Assembly (NCBI GenBank): GCA_038043525.1
Contig: JBBTBW010000009.1
Span: forward strand, 6,114-70,113
Length of the DNA: 64,000 nucleotides
Direction of reading: 5' to 3'
DNA from: Deltaproteobacteria bacterium
Lineage (GTDB): Bacteria > Desulfobacterota > GWC2-55-46
Shown: piece by piece, positions 18,094 to 31,035 of the stretch
Position numbering within the stretch: the stretch's first letter is position 1
How the letters are laid out: each line of letters starts with the position of its first letter
Position numbers and translations under genes: made by a program
The notes under the pieces: generated by a model
Seen by the model: the letters and a program-made list of their open reading frames with translations, nothing else
What the model was told of the DNA's origin: nothing
The model's database searches: none

Positions 18094-19824
18094 ATGATAC
18101 CAAAAGAGAAGATAGAAGAGGTAAAGGATCGCACCAACATAGTGCAGGTCATATCCGAGTATCTGCCCCTAAAAAAACGCGGGGCAAACCACCTCGGCCT
18201 CTGCCCATTTCACTCGGAGAAGACCCCTTCTTTTACGGTAAACGAGCAGAAGGGGATATATTACTGCTTCGGGTGCAACTCGACAGGCAACGCGATAACC
18301 TTCATCATGAAAAAAGAGGGCGTCGAGTTCATCGACGCCGTAAGGACGCTCGCCCATAAGGCAGGCATATCCATCGAAGAGAAGCGCACAGGCCCGCCTG
18401 ATGAGCGAGAGGTGATGTACGCCTCACTGAAGATTGCCGAGGAGTATTTTATAGCGCAGCTTGCAGGGCCTTCAGGCGGTTCGGCGCGCGAATACCTGAA
18501 AAAGAGAGGGTTTGACGGAGAGATCTCATCAAGGTTCGGGCTCGGCTGGGCGCCGAACGGTTGGGACGGGCTCGTTAGTTGCCTGAGGGGCAGGAAGATA
18601 CCGCTTGATACTGCTGAGAAGGCCGGCCTCGTAGGCAGGAAGGAAGAGCGTTTCTACGACAGGTTCAGGGCCAGGGTGATGTTCCCTATCACAGACGTCA
18701 GGGGCAGGGTGACAGGCTTCGGAGGCAGATGCCTTGATGACTCTGTGCCCAAGTATCTGAACAGCCCTGAAACACCTGTATTTAAAAAGGGTGAGACGCT
18801 CTACGGTCTTTTTCAGGCGAAGCCTGAGCTTGTAAAAGGCGCTAGCGCCATAGTCGTCGAGGGGTACTTCGATCTGATGGCGCTTCATAAAAACGGCTTT
18901 ACCTCGGCTGTAGCGACGATGGGCACGGCTCTTACGCCTGCGCACCTTCGGACGCTCAAGGGATACTCAGGGCTTGTCTACGCGCTCTTTGATTCTGATG
19001 CGGCAGGCAGGAACGCCGCCATAAGAAGCCTCGATATGTTTCTGGCTGAAGACTTGAGTTGCAGGGCTGTCGTCCTTTCAGGCGTCAAGGACCCTGACGA
19101 GTTCCTCGGCAGGAACGGGCCTGAGGCGTTAAGGGAGGCGATCGCAAAGGCAGAACCCTTGATGGAGTTTTACCTGAAAGATCTTGCCTCAATCGAGGAT
19201 GTCAAGGGGCCGGAGGGGAAAAAGAGGTACTTTGACCTTGCGAAAAAACACCTTTCAATGGTGAAGAACGAGGCTGAAAAAGGGCATTACGCGAAGGTCG
19301 TTGCCGCGATACTCGGCATAGGTGAGGCGTATGTGGCCCAAGGGCTGAAGGGCTCTGGGGAGTTGCGCTTCGAAGTGAAGCCTGAGGCCCACGCCAAGGC
19401 TCCATCCAAAAGGCCTGCCCCGATACATGAGACCGTTGTACTCAAGGTGATCATAAGCCATCCGGAGCTTTTAAGCGAGAGGGCAGCTACGGCGGTAGGT
19501 GAGTTTACGGACCCGGACCTGCGAGAGGCAGGCATGTTGGCCATCACCCTTATAAAGGCCGATGGCGTGGTAGACTCTCAGGCGCTGATAGAGGGCATAA
19601 CGGACGAGGGGGCGAGGGCGCGCATCGCCGGACTCCTCCTTCGCTCTGATGAGGGCTTTATAGAGGACCCGGCAAGGATGCTGGCAGATTGTTTGAAAAG
19701 GGTCTTAAAGAAAGGTAGACTTAAAGAGTGTACGATGGACTTCATAGAGAGCTTTGAAGACGCGGATGTCGCCATAGAGATTAGAAAGAGGTTTGAAGCT
19801 TCTTCACGAGGAGCAAAGCGTTGA
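18094..19824 (+). CDS. dnaG: DNA primase
   Basis: CPFH.EKTPSF..YCFGC zinc finger, [26 protein letters not shown]. Confidence 0.97.
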
Positions 19825-21329
19825 ACCGGCATGATCCAATGAGAGCCCGTAAGGAAGAGATGAAGGACGCGGTCGAGGAAAAAGAGGAAGGGCTGGAAGG
19901 GGCGGACCTTGAAGGGTCTGACCTTGAGGTGGATGAGTCGCGCCTCTCTGATGGGGACTCAGCCCTTGCCCAGGCCGAGGAGGCGGTAAGCGGCATCCTG
20001 TCCGTTGCCGCGGACCCGGTAAAGGCGTACCTGCGGGAGATGGGCGCTGTCTTTCTCCTTTCAAAGGAAGACGAGATAGCGCTCGCGAAGAAGATAGAGA
20101 GGTGCAAGCTCGCCCTTACGAAGGAGTTCTTGAAGACGCCTGTCGTTGTCTATGAGCTCGAAGGCCTCAAGCAGCGCCTCATACAAAGGCGGGCAGACGA
20201 GGCCTTCATCGAGTATGACGATGACGAAGGGCTTATAAGCGAAGACGAGCAGGAGCTGCAGGAGACCATAAAGAAGATCGACGAATCGATCGCGGCCTTC
20301 TCAGGGTTTTTGAAGGACGGCGGAGGCAAAGACGAACAGCCTCTCGTAAAGATGCTCCTTGATCTTGACAAGAAGACTAATATCCATAACAAGGTCATCG
20401 AGGCCCTCGGCGCTCTTGAGTTAGAACTTAGAAGGCTTCGCAGGAAGAACGCTACTGTTGAAAGGGGTGATAAGCGTGGCCCTTCGCCGGCAGGACCGGA
20501 TGATATAGCAGGACGCATACAGGAGCTGGAGGCAAGGGCCGGGGTCGGGTGTGATGATATCTCCGAGATGGTCGAGAGGCTGGAGACTCTCAGGGCTGAT
20601 GTCGAGGAGGCGAAGGAGAGGCTTATAAAGGCCAACCTGAGGCTCGTTGTCTCTATAGCCAGAAGGTACCTGAACAGGGGGCTTCACTTTCTCGACCTTA
20701 TCCAGGAGGGCAACATAGGGCTTATGCGCGCGGTCGAGAAGTTCGAGTATCAGCGCGGCTACAAGTTCTCGACATACGCGACATGGTGGATACGGCAGGC
20801 TGTCTCCAGGGCGATAGCGGACCAGGCGCGCACGATACGCATACCGGTCCACATGATAGAGACGATCAATAAGTTGATCCGCGTCTCTCATAAGATGGTG
20901 CAGGATAGTGGCAGGGAGCCTGAGCCTGAAGAGCTTGCGGCTGTGATGAACCTTCCGGTCGAGAAGATAAAGAAGATAATGAAGATAGCGAAGGAGCCGG
21001 TCTCTCTTGAAACACCCGTCGGCGAAGACGGGGACAGCATGCTCGGCGACTTCATAGAGGACAAGGGCGCAACCGTGCCTCACGACGAGATGATGTTTAA
21101 CGATCTCACCGGCCACATGAACGAGGTCCTCTCGACGCTATCTGATAGAGAGGAGAAGGTCCTTCGCATGCGCTTCGGCATCGGCGAGAACAAGGATTAC
21201 ACCCTCGAAGAGGTCGGGGCGTTCTTCAACGTGACGCGAGAGAGGATCCGCCAGATAGAGGCCAAGGCCCTGAGAAAGCTGAGACACCCTAAGAGATGCC
21301 GCACGCTTAAGGCGTTTTCTGAGAAGTAG
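19821..21329 (+). CDS. rpoD: RNA polymerase primary sigma factor (start may be ATG 19839 or 19860)
   Basis: Region 1.2 [11 protein letters not shown], region 2 [10 protein letters not shown]...[13 protein letters not shown], region 4 [19 protein letters not shown]; follows dnaG. Confidence 0.93.
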
Positions 21330-21483
21330 TTTTTTTAAGATGTCAGAGGACTGACTTGAAGCGGAGCAGTGGCTTTTTTTGGGGAGCGAATATATTTTTT
21401 AAGATTTTTTTTGACGGTAGATCCGCTAACTTGGCGGTATTTAATGTGATTTTTGGAACCCGAGAAATCCTTCGTAAACGTTA

Positions 21484-21535
21484 TGTGATTTTAGTCACTT
21501 TTCCTGCTTGACTTGTTTAAGAACCTCAGTATAAT
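21484..21535 (+). promoter_or_regulatory. sigma-70 promoter with upstream CRP/FNR-family-like box
   Basis: TGTGA-N6-TCACT at 21484-21499, TTGACT 21508-21513, 16 nt, TATAAT 21530-21535. Confidence 0.65.
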
Positions 21536-21714
21536 AATTCTAACACTGATCAATAGGTTCATGACGGGCCTTGAGGTCTTAGGCGATGGTGCCAACAGTA
21601 CGACTGCGCTTGTCTGTGCAGTTTTGTATTGCTGGCTATTTTTTTTGTCTGAGCTCAAGGTTTCCTTTTAGATATGCAGGATCTGTAAAATTCCCTTGTA
21701 AGGGTGAGGTGCGT

Positions 21715-22722
21715 ATGAAAAGAATTTTAGTCGGATTTGTGGCGGCGGCTTCATTGCTGGTGTTGAGCCCTGGTATAGGCGATACGACAGGCGTAAGCAA
21801 TTATCAGGCAGGGGATGCTGCCAGCGGGATAACCGCTTCAAGGCATAACCTAGGCGCCCTTGGCAAGGTGCTCCATACAAACCAGACCTCAGAGATCTGC
21901 GTATTCTGCCATACGCCACACCACTCAAATACTGGGGCCGGATCAGGTCCTCTCTGGAACAGATCAAACTCTACAGCGGCCAATTACATAGGCTACGGGG
22001 ATACGCTAGGCGGTTCTAATATCGGCGCCCCGGGCGGGGCGACATTAGCTTGCCTCAGCTGCCATGATGGCGTGACGACTTTCGACAATATAGTAAACGC
22101 GCCTGGCAAGGGCGGCCTGTCACCGACGCCAGGTGTCGGCGAGAACAAGACCTGGGTGTTCAGGATGCCTATAGAAGGCATGGGTACGGCCTCATGGAGG
22201 CATGACTTCTTCAACACCGCTCTCAGTGGTCAGGGCGCATGCGAAAACTGCCATGCCGGCATCGACAACCCGGCGATGAGGCTTTCACTGGGCACGTCGC
22301 TTTCAAACGATCATCCGATGTCAGTCACCTACACCCCTGGCATAGCCAGCCTCAGGCCGACAAATACAGTAATAAACAGCATCGATCTGATGGCAGGGCT
22401 GGCGGATAGCGCTTCGTCAGTATACGGCGGGAACCTCCAGCAGAACCGTTGGGCTGTAAAGGGTACTATATCAAACACGGCGACGATAGCCGATCTTCTG
22501 AGAGACGGCAAGGTCGAGTGCACGAGCTGTCATGATCCGCACTTCAGGAACCTCAGCTGGGACGAGGTCGAGAACACCTGGACCACCTATTGGGATGATA
22601 ACGAGCAGTTGCAGAAGCCGTACATATACTGCTCAGGCGAGGATTGCACTGACGGCAACTTCCTTAGAAGGGTCGGCGGAAACACAGGAAGCGGCATCTG
22701 CAGGACCTGCCATAACAAGTAA
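21715..22722 (+). CDS. Secreted pentaheme c-type cytochrome, OmcE-like
   Basis: Signal peptide; five CxxCH (CVFCH, CLSCH, CENCH, CTSCH, CRTCH); ICVFCHTPH-PLWNR-CxSCHDG-LSNDHP-ECxSCHxxH-FLR-GSxxCxxCH motif order; RBS GAGGT. Confidence 0.85.
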   Translation: MKRILVGFVAAASLLVLSPGIGDTTGVSNYQAGDAASGITASRHNLGALGKVLHTNQTSEICVFCHTPHHSNTGAGSGPLWNRSNSTAANYIGYGDTLGGSNIGAPGGATLACLSCHDGVTTFDNIVNAPGKGGLSPTPGVGENKTWVFRMPIEGMGTASWRHDFFNTALSGQGACENCHAGIDNPAMRLSLGTSLSNDHPMSVTYTPGIASLRPTNTVINSIDLMAGLADSASSVYGGNLQQNRWAVKGTISNTATIADLLRDGKVECTSCHDPHFRNLSWDEVENTWTTYWDDNEQLQKPYIYCSGEDCTDGNFLRRVGGNTGSGICRTCHNK

Positions 22723-22752
22723 TACGAAGCATAGATAGACAGAAATAACGAG

Positions 22753-22782
22753 ACGCCGGGGCATCAGCTCCGGCGTTTTTTT
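22753..22782 (+). terminator. Rho-independent terminator of the cytochrome gene
   Basis: ACGCCGGGGC / GCTCCGGCGT stem plus T-tract. Confidence 0.75.
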
Positions 22783-22873
22783 GTGCGATAAGTTCAAAGG
22801 CGGTCAGTTTTATTTCGCTCCTCCCCTTACTCACAAGGGGAGGCTGGGAGGGTGTTTTTGTAAAAGGCATTTG

Positions 22874-23008
22874 CTGATTTTCTATTGCGCACTTCCGTGC
22901 GCCTTTTGTGTATGGTTAGAACGGGCCGTATAAAAACATGGGTCTGATTTTAGCTGTGCACTTCTGTGCGTTTTTTTGGGTATGGCTCCCTTCGCTTTCG
23001 AACCTGAC
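22874..23008 (-). repeat. Tandem ~70-bp partial units of the palindromic repeat family
   Basis: CTGATTT...GCACTTCyGTGCG...GkGTATGG repeats at 22874 and 22944; same arrangement at 46500-46610. Confidence 0.75.
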
Positions 23009-23076
23009 GGTAGGGCAGGTCACACCCGCCATTGCTACTTCAGGGCTTTTCAAACCACCCCTCTAGGCCGCTGTTT

Positions 23077-23216
23077 CTTTTGCACACTGCCGTGGCTTTT
23101 GGGTATGGCTCGCTTCGCTTTCGAGCTGACTCGCAGCAGATACAAAGACCTGCTCGTCAGCTCTCAGTCAGGCTCGCTACGCCATGACCCGAGTTTTGTT
23201 TTAAGGCAAGGGCAAG
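23077..23216 (-). repeat. ~136-bp palindromic dispersed repeat, copy 2
   Basis: Near-identical to the reverse complement of 14444-14579. Confidence 0.9.
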
Positions 23217-23293
23217 ATTCAAAGGCGGCATCTAGTTTGTTTTTTCGCTCCTCCCTTTTGTGCAAGGGGAGGCTGGGAGGGGTCTGAGGATTA

Positions 23294-23426
23294 TCTTGCC
23301 TTTAAACAAACCCGGGTATGGTGGAATGAGCCTAAAGGATGGCCGATGAGCAGGTTATTGTATCTGCTGCGAGTCGGCCGGACAGCGAAAGGAGCCATAC
23401 CCAAAAGGCGCACGGAAGTGCAAAGC
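23294..23426 (+). repeat. ~136-bp palindromic dispersed repeat, copy 3 (inverted relative to copy 2)
   Basis: AAACAAACCCGGGT-ATGG...GATGAGCAGG...CTGCGAGTC...GAGCCATACCCAAAAG...GTGCAAAG, colinear with copy 1 but more diverged. Confidence 0.85.
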
Positions 23427-23452
23427 TGGAGTCAGACTGATATTTCGTTTGC

Positions 23453-23477
23453 TGGAGCAGGTTTGCAACCTGCTCCA
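23453..23477. repeat. REP-like perfect hairpin
   Basis: TGGAGCAGGTT-TGC-AACCTGCTCCA. Confidence 0.55.
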
Positions 23478-23779
23478 TAGATTTCGCATGTGCCTGAAAC
23501 GAATTATGGTGTTCAAGTTACAAGCTTGAACCCGCAAGGAAACAGATGCCTGCTTGTCGGCCATCCTATATTCATCCCGCCATGACCCGGTTGTTTTAGG
23601 GCAAAGGCAAGAGACAATTCCGACACCACCTCCCTGCACCTTGCCCATTATGCAGGTTGTTTAGAGGCAAAGACGGACTGGTCTCGGAATGGCGGTTGGA
23701 TTTTATGTCTGATTAAGTCGGACGAGCCCTGCGATCTGCCCGTCAGGATCAACTCGCAACATCTCAGATGCGCGGCCGG

Positions 23780-24214
23780 TCAGCGGTTCTCGGCTTTTTC
23801 TTTGTCCAGAAGTATGTTGAGGCGGTTTTCCATATCGAGTAGTTTTATCATCAACTCGCTGCCCGGAGATCCTTTGACGTTCGTGTGGACCACGAGCTTC
23901 AATTCATCGACGTCATGCAGGAGTTTTTCAAAATCGCCTTTGAGCCTGAGGACCTTGATCTGGACCTGTTCGTAGCTCTTTTGGAGCTCGATGTATTTGT
24001 TTGTCATCTCGTTTAATGATTTTCCGCGCTCTTGTCCCCTGTAATCCGACTTGCGTTCTGCCTCGATGCGAGCAGCCTTTTCGCTTTGAAGGGCTATTGA
24101 AAGTCTAGCGACATCCTCCTCATACGCGCTCAGAGATACGCACCCTGATAACGCAGTGAGCGAGAGAGATGAAACGGCGATAACCAGCAACAGGCGTACT
24201 ATAGCTGACCTCAT
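23780..24214 (-). CDS. Hypothetical coiled-coil lipoprotein
   Basis: Lipobox LSGC followed by a long heptad-rich helix. Confidence 0.7.
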   Translation of the reverse strand: MRSAIVRLLLVIAVSSLSLTALSGCVSLSAYEEDVARLSIALQSEKAARIEAERKSDYRGQERGKSLNEMTNKYIELQKSYEQVQIKVLRLKGDFEKLLHDVDELKLVVHTNVKGSPGSELMIKLLDMENRLNILLDKEKAENR

Positions 24215-29244: not shown

Positions 29245-31035
29245 ATGATGACCGAGAAAAAATCACTCACGCTCGATTTCGTGGCCTCCGTACTCAGGAA
29301 GAAAGACCTCCTGAGCGAGGTTCAAGAAAAGGAGATACGCATAAAGGGCGAGGGACAGAGGGCGCGCCTTAAAAAATCACACGATACGTTCTATTCATCA
29401 AAGAGGCTCCATGCCATATCCGAGACGGTCTCAGCCGCCGAAGTAATAGCCTCTTTGAACCTCGCGGTGCCTGGGACCGATAAGGTCCTTACCGAGGAGA
29501 TGATCACCGAGGCCATAGCCTCTGAGGTCGGCCTGCCGTACCTGAAGATAGACCCGTTGAAGCTCAACCTCGATCTGGTCACCTCCAATATACCGAGGCC
29601 TTTCGCGCAGAGATACCTGATAGTGCCTGTTGATGAGAAAGACGGCGTAGTCACCCTTGCCGTAGCTGACCCGTTTAACCTCGAGGCCGTGGAAAGCCTC
29701 AAGAGCAACAGGCGCATGAAGGTGACGCTCGTACTTAGCTCGAAGACCGACATACTCAAGATAGTGCGCGAGTTTTTCGGGTTCCGCTATTCGGTGGGCG
29801 CGGCGGAAAAAGAGTTTAAGGGGTCGGCCGAGCTCGGCTCCCTAGAACAGTACGTAAAGCTCAAGGGTGCGGTAGAGCTTGAGGCGACAGACCAGCACAT
29901 AGTCAACGCGGTCGAGTACCTCCTCCATTACGCTTACGAACAGAGGGCAAGCGATATCCATATAGAGCCGAAGAGGGAAAAATCCCTTGTAAGGCTAAGG
30001 ATAGACGGGGTACTCCACTACATCCATACCGTGCCGAGGGCGGTCCACGCGTCTATCGTCTCCAGGATAAAGATGCTCTCCAGGCTCGATATCGCGGAGA
30101 AGAGAAAGCCGCAGGACGGGCGCATCAAGACTTCTTTTCGCGATAAGGAGATAGAGCTCAGGGTCTCGACCCTGCCTACGGTCTTCGGTGAAAAGGTAGT
30201 GATAAGGATATTCGACCCTGAGATACTCCTGCAGGATATAGTAGGGCTTGGTTTTTTTCCGAAGGAGCTGGATACTTTTAACGGGTTTCTCAAGAAGCCT
30301 TACGGCATAGTCCTTGTGACAGGGCCTACAGGGAGCGGAAAGACAACTACGCTTTATTCGGCCCTTAAATCGCTCTCGACCCCTGACGTGAACATCATCA
30401 CCATAGAAGACCCGATAGAGATGGTCGTAGAGGAGTTCAACCAGGTCGGGGTTCAGCCGCAGATCGGGGTAGACTTCGCAGGGTGCCTGAGGACCTTGAT
30501 GAGGCAGGACCCTGACATAATCATGGTAGGGGAGATCAGGGACAAGGAGACGGCTGATAACGCGGTGCAGGCGGCCCTCACAGGCCATCTCGTCTTCTCG
30601 ACGCTGCATACCAACGACGCTCCCTCGTCGGTGACCCGGCTTCTTGACCTCGGCGTGCCGAAGTTCCTGATAAACTCTACCGTGATAGGGATAGTGGCCC
30701 AGAGGCTTGTCAGGAAGATCTGCGTCAACTGCAGGAAGGAGAGGCTTCTGACCGACGACGAGATGGAGCATCTGAGGCTCAAGCCGAAGGAGTACAAGGT
30801 ATGGTACGGCGAAGGATGCACGGATTGCCGCTCTACGGGCTATAAAGGCAGGACCGCTGTATTTGAAATGCTCGACTTTAATGAAGAGATGAGGTCTGTC
30901 CTTGTCAGGACTATCGATGTGACCGCTCTTGAGAAGGCGGCCCGCGCCGGCGGGATGTCTACACTTAGGGAGTCGGCCATCAGAAAGATGCTTATGGGGC
31001 ATACAACATACGAAGAAGTCATATCAGTGACATGA
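29245..31035 (+). CDS. GspE/PilB-family secretion ATPase
   Basis: ASDIHIEP, PQDGR, GPTGSGKTT, TIEDPIE, RQDPD, TGHLVFSTLH, CxxC...CxxC zinc motif. Confidence 0.93.
   Translation: MMTEKKSLTLDFVASVLRKKDLLSEVQEKEIRIKGEGQRARLKKSHDTFYSSKRLHAISETVSAAEVIASLNLAVPGTDKVLTEEMITEAIASEVGLPYLKIDPLKLNLDLVTSNIPRPFAQRYLIVPVDEKDGVVTLAVADPFNLEAVESLKSNRRMKVTLVLSSKTDILKIVREFFGFRYSVGAAEKEFKGSAELGSLEQYVKLKGAVELEATDQHIVNAVEYLLHYAYEQRASDIHIEPKREKSLVRLRIDGVLHYIHTVPRAVHASIVSRIKMLSRLDIAEKRKPQDGRIKTSFRDKEIELRVSTLPTVFGEKVVIRIFDPEILLQDIVGLGFFPKELDTFNGFLKKPYGIVLVTGPTGSGKTTTLYSALKSLSTPDVNIITIEDPIEMVVEEFNQVGVQPQIGVDFAGCLRTLMRQDPDIIMVGEIRDKETADNAVQAALTGHLVFSTLHTNDAPSSVTRLLDLGVPKFLINSTVIGIVAQRLVRKICVNCRKERLLTDDEMEHLRLKPKEYKVWYGEGCTDCRSTGYKGRTAVFEMLDFNEEMRSVLVRTIDVTALEKAARAGGMSTLRESAIRKMLMGHTTYEEVISVT

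Follow-up and report, generated by a model that had tools for sequence, protein, structure and literature searches.

The 64,000-nucleotide (nt) stretch of contig JBBTBW010000009.1 from a Deltaproteobacteria bacterium (the window) carries a gene for a pentahaem c-type cytochrome, here called P0001, at 21715..22722 on the forward strand. Sequence comparison and a structure model show that P0001 is a homologue of OmcE, the tetrahaem subunit of conductive filaments in Geobacter sulfurreducens and Desulfuromonas soudanensis. P0001 is a long form with an inserted haem motif, and the residues conserved with this motif point strongly to a fifth haem. The gene is preceded by a conserved attenuator leader RNA, copies of which are also found in front of two tetrahaem paralogues and a GGDEF-type operon of the same genome. 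A preliminary description of the locus, made from the sequence alone, had presented the cytochrome as an OmcE-like nanowire protein with an inserted fifth haem; it missed the leader and the shared regulon. The best explanation of the whole is a five-haem OmcE-like wire subunit with a branch haem, plus leader-controlled expression, and we give it an even chance of being correct.

Homology to OmcE and the inserted fifth haem motif

Translation of 21715-22719 yields a product of 335 amino acids (aa), followed by a TAA stop codon (22720-22722). In a phmmer search of all Protein Data Bank (PDB) sequences P0001 matched 7tfs_A (E = 1.2e-13) and 9yuq_N (E = 8.3e-11, 16 chains); the rest was noise. A profile of 107 family members detected the same two structures at 3.6e-27 and 6.1e-23, the sole PDB matches with E ≤ 0.01. 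The 107-row alignment is a hand-picked set composed of the query, 76 of the best 120 homologues, 28 representatives and the two paralogues from the same genome. Entry 7tfs is titled OmcE nanowire of Geobacter sulfurreducens. Judging from its chain count and from the paper of Petersen et al. (mBio 2026), which describes a solved OmcE bundle of Desulfuromonas soudanensis (PMC13712944), 9YUQ is probably the OmcE homologue structure of D. soudanensis WTL. An AlphaFold2 model computed with the 107-row alignment is mostly coil, with a predicted local distance difference test score (pLDDT) of 83 and a predicted template modelling score of 0.81. Foldseek comparison of this model with the PDB returned OmcE alone as a significant match (E = 3.6e-4, probability 1.00). 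An exhaustive VIA-align comparison covered 48,161 representative chains, of which 7tfs_A alone reached Z ≥ 2 (Z = 9.2, root-mean-square deviation 3.5 Å over 177 of 202 residues, 30% identity; model residues 43-334 against chain residues 30-231). The OmcE motif order given in the preliminary description is therefore real in the sequence alignments and in the fold, and in the Foldseek comparison that it had suggested the best and only significant structural match is a polymerising cytochrome. A relationship to OmcS was rejected (Foldseek E = 5.5, not significant). Pfam and NCBIfam gave generic haem-motif domains only (Cytochrome_C7, Paired_CXXCH_1), and a match to the NCBIfam family nanowire_3heme was discarded as far below the family cut-off.

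Every motif named in the preliminary description is found in the translation in the same order: RHNL (aa 43-46), ICVFCHTPH (61-69), PLWNR (79-83), CLSCHDG (113-119), WRHDF (161-165), CENCH (176-180), LGTSLSNDHP (192-201), ECTSCHDPH (268-276), WDEVENTWTTYWDD (282-295), CSGEDC (306-311), FLR (316-318) and GSGICRTCHNK (325-335). The five CXXCH motifs start at C62, C113, C176, C269 and C329. P0001 shares with OmcE (7TFS, 9YUQ) the motifs [KR]H[DN]L, CxFCHTPH, PLWNR, CLSCHDG, LSNDHP, CxSCHxxH, FLR and a C-terminal CxxCHxK, as well as the exported precursor and the mostly coil architecture. The predicted signal peptide is of the Sec type, MKRILVGFVAAASLLVLSPGIG (21715..21780, forward strand, as are all features of the window given below), with no lipobox Cys and with cleavage placed by eye near G22/D23. 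The N-termini of the homologues share the MKR start, the hydrophobic stretch and the small residues.

The four OmcE haem motifs and four extra ligand His (H44, H69, H200 and H276) are retained in order. These four His are invariant in 107 of 107 sequences and align to the matching His of OmcE; such a set of four ligand His beyond the CXXCH motifs is described for OmcE homologues (PMC13712944, section 7). His44 in SRHNL (21844..21846) aligns to the His of the N-terminal TKHDL in 7tfs. Haem site 1, CVFCH (C62-H66), and its distal-ligand candidate His69 of TPH (together 21898..21921) are invariant and align to CVFCHTPH of OmcE. Haem site 2, CLSCH (C113-H117, 22051..22065), is likewise invariant and aligns to CMSCHDG. 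His200 in SNDHP (22312..22314), a conserved distal ligand, aligns within LGTDLSNDHPV. Haem site 4, CTSCH (C269-H273) with His276 of DPH (22519..22542), is invariant and equivalent to OmcE haem 3, being aligned to ECGSCHKVH of 7tfs and CSSCHDVH of 9yuq. Haem site 5, CRTCH (C329-H333, 22699..22713), is equivalent to the C-terminal OmcE haem 4 and aligns to CLGCHKK (7tfs) and CTTCHSK (9yuq). Its C332 and H333 are invariant and C329 is at least 90% conserved in the 107 sequences; all three are invariant in a smaller alignment of 24 sequences (the query and 23 chosen from the best 120 homologues).

P0001 also differs from OmcE. The OmcE subunits have four haems and 232 and 218 aa, and the family is defined as tetrahaem with about 200 mature residues, whereas P0001 has five CXXCH motifs and 335 aa. 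The stretch between NDHP and the next haem is longer and there are two insertions. About 21 conserved residues precede His44 in P0001, whereas the solved OmcE chain begins one residue before the equivalent His. Unlike OmcE, P0001 is encoded outside any OmcE cluster with porin, beta-propellers and cytochromes.

Insertion 1 (22150..22284), defined relative to OmcE and to both tetrahaem paralogues, contains His163 (22201-22203) and the CENCH motif (C176-H180, 22240-22254). In the 24-row alignment all five CXXCH motifs are invariant in 24 of 24 rows, including C176, C179 and H180 of CENCH, and H163 and H70 are at least 90% conserved. The fifth motif is present between haem 2 and NDHP in 83 of the 107 rows. 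Landmark parsing succeeded for 97 of these rows (10 were dropped where the landmark patterns failed), and a His was found 6-30 residues before the fifth motif in 77 of the 78 parsed five-haem rows, mostly as DHF, with P0123 as the exception. Insertion 2 (22561..22653) is aromatic and acidic, starting with WDEVENTWTTYWDD, and carries the Cys pair C306/C311 in CSGEDC (22630-22647). Both Cys are invariant in the 24-row alignment and probably form a disulfide. The pair occurs in 80 of the 83 rows with the fifth motif and in one of the 24 rows without it. Three short five-haem relatives of 225-250 aa (P0242, P0260 and P0267) carry the extra motif at the topologically equivalent place, with a His some 16 residues ahead of it. 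Conservation of the motif, the upstream His and the Cys pair throughout the family makes it likely that the fifth haem is real and bis-His. The pattern argues strongly for a haem at CENCH, in the interval between OmcE haems 2 and 3, whose second axial ligand would be His163; the ten conserved His would then fit five bis-His haems, which we infer with the same strength. The preliminary description had pointed to the CENCH insertion, the extra His before it and the Cys pair of the second insertion, and had raised the possibility that CENCH might prove unconserved. The homologue survey bears out all three features and finds CENCH conserved.

If the inserted haem were a catalytic or ligand-binding site instead of a relay, P0001 would act as a sensor or as a redox enzyme such as a reductase of a soluble acceptor. 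The extra haem does lie in a variable, probably surface-exposed insertion, and Pfam shows a weak similarity of the haem 4 region to the di-haem peroxidase family (sub-threshold at E = 6.8e-4). However, a distal His in 77 of 78 rows implies a six-coordinate bis-His haem, which is typical of electron relays, and no catalytic family was matched above threshold in Pfam or NCBIfam. We regard an enzyme or sensor as very improbable.

The family is large. In a word-indexed search 8000 candidates were scored and 3536 homologues were found at E ≤ 0.001. The best 120 of the 3536 are 296-354 aa in length with 50-91% identity and are, where named, hypothetical proteins of uncultured 'Deltaproteobacteria' or Thermodesulfobacteriota. 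An exhaustive search of 50%-identity representatives gave 3117 clusters at E ≤ 0.001 and 53 at E ≤ 1e-30; among the best 150 representatives 106 have four CXXCH motifs and 15 have five. The ESM Atlas contributed generic cytochrome clusters only, from several phyla. In a FastTree tree of 130 rows, which is approximate with the trait's own columns kept in the alignment, the long forms split from the short forms with a support of 100. The five-haem state undergoes at least eight changes on this tree, six of them forced by well-supported branches. The insertion is thus not a singular event: in a family of thousands the fifth haem came or went several times. Because of these repeated changes the fifth haem behaves as an add-on. 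The tree suggests a module that was gained or lost repeatedly, which would fit a side haem better than a link of the main chain; such a history is expected for an add-on that is dispensable to the core wire.

The concept of such a protein is not new. The preliminary description offered P0001 as a new pentahaem filament variant with a possible side-branch haem, an idea already predicted in print by Petersen et al. (PMC13712944, section 9 and Fig. 5), who describe 5-haem OmcE-like proteins, known by prediction, mostly from uncultured bacteria of several phyla. In their AlphaFold3 models the insulated four-haem chain is kept and the extra haem is more solvent-accessible, and a possible nanowire family that blends OmcE and OmcZ properties is proposed there (PMC13712944). 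P0001 resembles these proteins in its OmcE similarity and its fifth CxxCH. Exposure of the extra haem is hinted at indirectly in P0001 by its location in a variable insertion and by the repeated gain or loss of the trait. The published proteins are described as having a 'similar protein length' to OmcE (PMC13712944), whereas P0001 is about 100 residues longer and has the Cys-pair insertion. The gene is therefore a long-form member of a variant already predicted, and its value lies in a well-documented long-form member together with its regulon; the co-regulated paralogues and the uncatalogued leader are most worth experiment.

Two other groups of cytochromes invite comparison. OmcZ of Geobacter sulfurreducens (8D9M, the 'leaky' nanowire) is described as having eight haems and no inter-subunit His ligation, with one solvent-exposed haem per subunit branching off (PMC9473688). 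Its likeness to P0001 is in concept only; the fold is unrelated, and phmmer against the PDB, Foldseek and VIA-align gave no sequence or fold match of P0001 to OmcZ. The PHC family (cable bacteria, ExtKL, T. tepidum c552 and the archaeal AvECN) is, like P0001, made up of five-haem or nanowire-related proteins proposed as wire subunits; the cited account places it structurally with c552 and AvECN instead of OmcE (PMC11976967). It was absent from the fold and sequence matches of P0001, although this does not exclude distant kinship.

Wire subunit or electron carrier

As a wire subunit, P0001 would have its haems attached in the periplasm, would then be exported and would polymerise head to tail as OmcE does. 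In OmcS and OmcE a haem is ligated by a His of the adjacent subunit (PMC9473688, PMC12954529). By alignment His44 is the candidate for this bridging His; it would supply the missing ligand of a haem in the next subunit. A continuous wire would be built from the four conserved haems, with the fifth on the surface as a side branch or exit point. For polymerisation with a branch haem the chances for and against seem to us about equal. A homodimer prediction with four haems gave a median score of 0.17 (mark 0.42), which counts neither for nor against binding.

The genetics of P0001 is wire-like: the gene is monocistronic, has a very strong promoter and terminator and belongs to a multiplied set of paralogues, with five genes in tandem in one relative. 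The genome (2.46 Mb in 27 contigs) encodes two tetrahaem long-form paralogues, at C3:102527-103456 (+) and C4:75358-76278 (-), of 309 and 306 aa. Both carry a copy of the leader, and in both the CENCH insertion and the Cys pair are missing. A third relative, also on C3, is a 743-aa protein with 11 haems, whose residues 36-251 match the whole of OmcE (E = 8.1e-22). It is encoded in a cluster (C3:239514-247730) with a 7-haem cytochrome, a BamB/PQQ-like beta-propeller, a 4-haem cytochrome, an NHL beta-propeller and further 4- and 6-haem cytochromes. By gene content the cluster resembles the OmcE helper set, described as two multihaem cytochromes, two beta-propeller lipoproteins and a large beta-barrel (PMC13712944, section 8). 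Proteins of about 744-806 aa that begin with this OmcE-like module are encoded in most relatives and may anchor wires or form their base.

Several points weigh against a wire. The porin, beta-propeller and cytochrome partners of canonical OmcE clusters are not among the neighbours of the P0001 gene; the OmcE genes selected by Petersen et al. all have such neighbours (PMC13712944, sections 6 and 8). No large beta-barrel gene was seen beside the helper cluster on C3. The count of ten His to five haems is equally compatible with a monomer and with a polymer. The subunit interface may also differ from that of OmcE, P0001 being about 100 residues longer with about 21 conserved residues before His44.

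The main rival explanation builds on the same observations. P0001 would have the OmcE fold and be a non-polymerising carrier, a soluble periplasmic or cell-surface monomer in which all ten His ligate within one chain, and it would ferry electrons between the quinol oxidoreductases of the inner membrane and partners further out. The locus without a porin or helper gene and the His count satisfied within one chain agree with this. So does the conserved stretch before His44, where the model is confident (pLDDT about 90 at residues 31-50), and the family, spread over many phyla, is larger than expected were every member a nanowire. However, the only solved relatives are filament subunits, and all 107 aligned sequences keep the His that would connect subunits in OmcE-type filaments. 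The strong promoter, the tandem amplification and the unlinked helper cluster also resemble those of structural-subunit genes. We think a monomeric carrier rather unlikely, while treating it as the most serious competitor of the wire.

The paralogues raise another possibility. The tetrahaem proteins would make up the bulk of a mixed wire, and P0001 would be a minor or specialised subunit at its tip, at its base or as a 'tap', whose exposed fifth haem would hand electrons to minerals or partner cells. The three paralogues share the leader and so are probably co-expressed, and the interface-relevant motifs are common to all three; Petersen et al. themselves ask whether an OmcE-like protein with more exposed haems forms the filament tip (PMC13712944). 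Nevertheless, most members of the close family have five haems (83 of the 107 sequences of the hand-picked alignment), five such genes stand in tandem in one relative, which is unlike a minor component, and the identity of P0001 to its four-haem paralogues is only about 58-60%. A mixed wire of this kind is improbable in our estimate.

Just two OmcE filaments have been solved, both tetrahaem and 'insulated'. A widespread branch-haem wire, if true, would show sideways electron hand-over to minerals, partner cells and neighbouring wires. One genome with a five-haem gene and two four-haem paralogues under one control element provides a clean natural comparison.

The conserved leader RNA and its possible readers

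The promoter-to-start leader of the gene is 173 nt long and includes a conserved attenuator element of about 105 nt (21543..21647), delimited by alignment and by covariance model R1. Its first hairpin, P1 (21555-21571), has a 6-bp stem and the loop A-N-G-R-N. The invariant stretch GGCGAUGGUGCC follows at 21582-21593 and is able to form a 3-bp hairpin, P2. A terminator hairpin (21591-21636) and a U-run (21639-21646) complete the element. P2 and the terminator share GCC at 21591-21593, as read from the sequence. The 3' strand of P2 is the base of the terminator, and the two hairpins should therefore be mutually exclusive. Transcription would end at the internal terminator unless the small competing hairpin is stabilised. 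Eleven leaders from paralogues and orthologues, which share the GGCUC-ANGRN-GGGCC hairpin, the GG(C/U)NA(U/A)G..GCC stretch and a terminator with U7-9, were used to build R1.

In the genome of P0001 the model found four copies (E from 1e-15 to 2e-12), three of them before the three OmcE-like paralogues. The fourth (C14:43459-43551, E = 8.8e-14), which was outside the training set, precedes a PocR-GAF-GGDEF gene. The operon that follows it (L031 588-6041) encodes PocR-GAF-GGDEF (535 aa), AAA_16/HATPase_c_2 (742 aa) and GAF-HD-GYP (410 aa) proteins. The same leader would thus control the two tetrahaem paralogues and a PocR-GAF-GGDEF diguanylate cyclase operon. As the leader is common to both, wire-type cytochromes and signalling by cyclic diguanosine monophosphate (c-di-GMP) would be switched together.

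Of 41 genomes from this family and order, counting that of P0001, 26 have OmcE-like matches. R1 gave 81 matches in 27 of the 41, these being the 26 with OmcE-like genes and one more. About 50 of the 81 are directly upstream of an OmcE-like match on the same strand, as compared by eye between the tables. For 52 distinct leaders the downstream gene was classified as OmcE-like or four-haem cytochrome (28), PocR-GGDEF-type (15), other (8) or none (1); this sample is biased by 20 non-cytochrome cases fetched on purpose, and two of the 15, the copy in the genome of P0001 and a gene truncated at a contig end, were reclassified by eye. Orthologous GGDEF genes with the leader were found in at least 13 of those 20 extra loci from relatives.

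In the 52 distinct sequences the bases of P1 and the terminator pair in 93.5% of cells, compared with 78.3% for shuffled and 33-46% for slid partners, in an alignment fitted to R1, which favours the proposed structure. Twelve of the 17 leader pairs change on both sides. P1 by itself has support from covariation, four of its six pairs varying on both sides, with pairing in 94.5% of cells. A further helix, P0, enclosing P1 was considered and is not claimed (48.9% of cells pair in the model-fitted alignment). Rfam 15, which includes GEMM-I and GEMM-II, gave no match at E ≤ 1 in 21300-23800; within 21536-21720 there were two eukaryotic long non-coding RNA matches only, with E of 1.7 and 2.9, which are noise.

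By analogy, the factor that stabilises the competing hairpin is likely to be an ANTAR-type RNA-binding protein. ANTAR antiterminators are described as two small hairpins with similar loops, the second of which competes with the terminator; in each six-nucleotide loop the first base is A and the fourth is G (PMC3369931). The leader resembles those of EutV/eutP, NasR/nasF and AmiR/amiE (PMC3369931) in its two small predicted hairpins with similar loops, the second sharing bases with the terminator stem. In four genomes from three genera (G006, G007, G010 and G020), eight small ANTAR open reading frames (ORFs; 98-167-aa frames) lie no more than about 1.2 kb from OmcE-like genes that carry the leader. 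Stand-alone ANTAR genes, with frames of about 100-150 aa, adjoin leader-carrying tetrahaem OmcE-like genes at L085 636-935 (-), L082 748-1176 (-), G010:C21:17470-17628 and 19790-19945, and G006:C1:1795119-1795682, and some of the small ANTAR genes are transcribed divergently from the cytochrome gene.

Other observations speak against this account of the leader. P2 pairs in 100% of cells, yet it is almost invariant and so gains no support from covariation. The P1 loop is a pentaloop A-N-G-R-N with A1 and G3, not the A1/G4 hexaloop of ANTAR leaders (PMC3369931); the P2 loop reads N-A-W-G-N-N, with the G at position 4 present and the A at position 2. Presence or absence of ANTAR genes fails as a discriminator, since they occur in 41 of 41 genomes, including the 14 without a leader. 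The genome of P0001 has two ANTAR genes, of the response-regulator type, which are unlinked, and none adjoins these cytochromes. Cytochromes and a GGDEF operon are also not known as ANTAR regulons, and the likeness is predicted from sequence. A ligand is a less likely stabiliser; given the GGDEF operon it could perhaps be a cyclic dinucleotide. In Geobacter, GEMM-I riboswitches for c-di-GMP or cyclic GMP-AMP precede extracellular electron-transfer genes (Kellenberger 2015, as cited in PMC13194489). The leader has in common with them a structured RNA on electron-transfer genes and, through the GGDEF operon, a link to cyclic dinucleotides; it differs in the lack of a match to Rfam and in a conserved part much smaller than the GEMM aptamer. 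The leader would link cytochromes to c-di-GMP signalling by a route other than the Geobacter GEMM riboswitches, and provides a direct handle on when uncultured groundwater and sediment bacteria make these costly proteins.

Taken at its fullest, the proposal would be that an uncultured order builds 'leaky' OmcE-type wires from long five-haem subunits, alone or with tetrahaem paralogues, with the side-branch haem as exit, and that the scattered subunit genes and the diguanylate cyclase operon form one regulon through an uncatalogued, ANTAR-read antiterminator leader. This full combination is speculative, and we hold it to be doubtful.

Transcription signals and genomic setting

A longer in-frame ORF of 378 aa starts at 21586 in the ORF table. 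Its upstream part falls within the RNA leader. The true start is the ATG at 21715, as indicated by the GAGG ribosome-binding site, the MKR start of the homologues and the conserved leader RNA upstream. The Shine-Dalgarno sequence GTGAGGTG is located at 21704..21711, its GAGG ending 5 nt before the ATG. A near-consensus sigma-70 promoter, TTGACT-16 nt-TATAAT (21508..21535), matches at 11 of 12 positions. It is the single such site in 21300-23800, where 1.9 are expected in shuffles, and similar TTGACA/T...TATAAT boxes lie upstream of the paralogues and orthologues. The transcript would start at about 21542, as inferred from the promoter sequence. Downstream of the gene an intrinsic terminator, GACGCCGGGGC-AUCA-GCUCCGGCGU followed by U7 (22750..22782), forms a 13-bp GC-rich hairpin of -28 kcal/mol (z score -5.03; none of 200 shuffles was as stable). 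The own promoter, the own terminator and the monocistronic gene of the preliminary description are thus sound. The CRP/FNR-like box that it also noted exists as a palindrome, TGTGATTTTAGTCACT (21484..21499), with one mismatch to TGTGA-N6-TCACA, but it is not above chance: the window contains two one-mismatch matches against 0.95 expected, and 25 of 100 shuffles reach two. The box was not visible in the orthologous upstream regions compared, and it is probably a chance occurrence.

The neighbours of the gene are housekeeping genes, with NIF3, MutS2, DnaG and RpoD upstream, and a small lipoprotein, ribosomal protein S21, acetyl-CoA synthetase (Acs), HisS, a PilB-like ATPase and EngB downstream. 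In this respect the gene is the orphan that the preliminary description made of it; in the genome it is accompanied by the two tetrahaem paralogues and the 11-haem OmcE-module fusion described above. The order rpoD, pentahaem cytochrome, lipoprotein, acs, hisS is kept in a genome of another genus (L025, G003:C5). In two other relatives (L023/L024; G023, G013) the cytochrome is located between ligA and rplM-rpsI, in one of them as five tandem five-haem genes, of which the first alone has the leader.

The 1-kb gap after the gene (22800-23700) is filled with direct and inverted short repeats that are often found at contig ends genome-wide. Exact genome-wide copies number 52 for GGGGAGGCTGGGAGGG, 18 for GCACTTCCGTGCGC and 196 for GGGTATGGCTC, and the four sub-motifs range from 18 to 196 copies. 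The repeats at 22800-23430 were rejected as part of the gene and belong to a genome-wide interspersed family. A PilB/GspE-type secretion ATPase with T2SSE and MshEN domains is encoded at 29245-31035, 6.5 kb downstream of the cytochrome gene. Elsewhere in the genome (C3:291498-297773) two neighbouring ORFs, which encode 21 and 12 CXXCH motifs, are close to the gene of a 710-aa protein that ends in ...YRLDF, a typical end of outer-membrane beta-barrels; this locus may encode a porin-cytochrome conduit.

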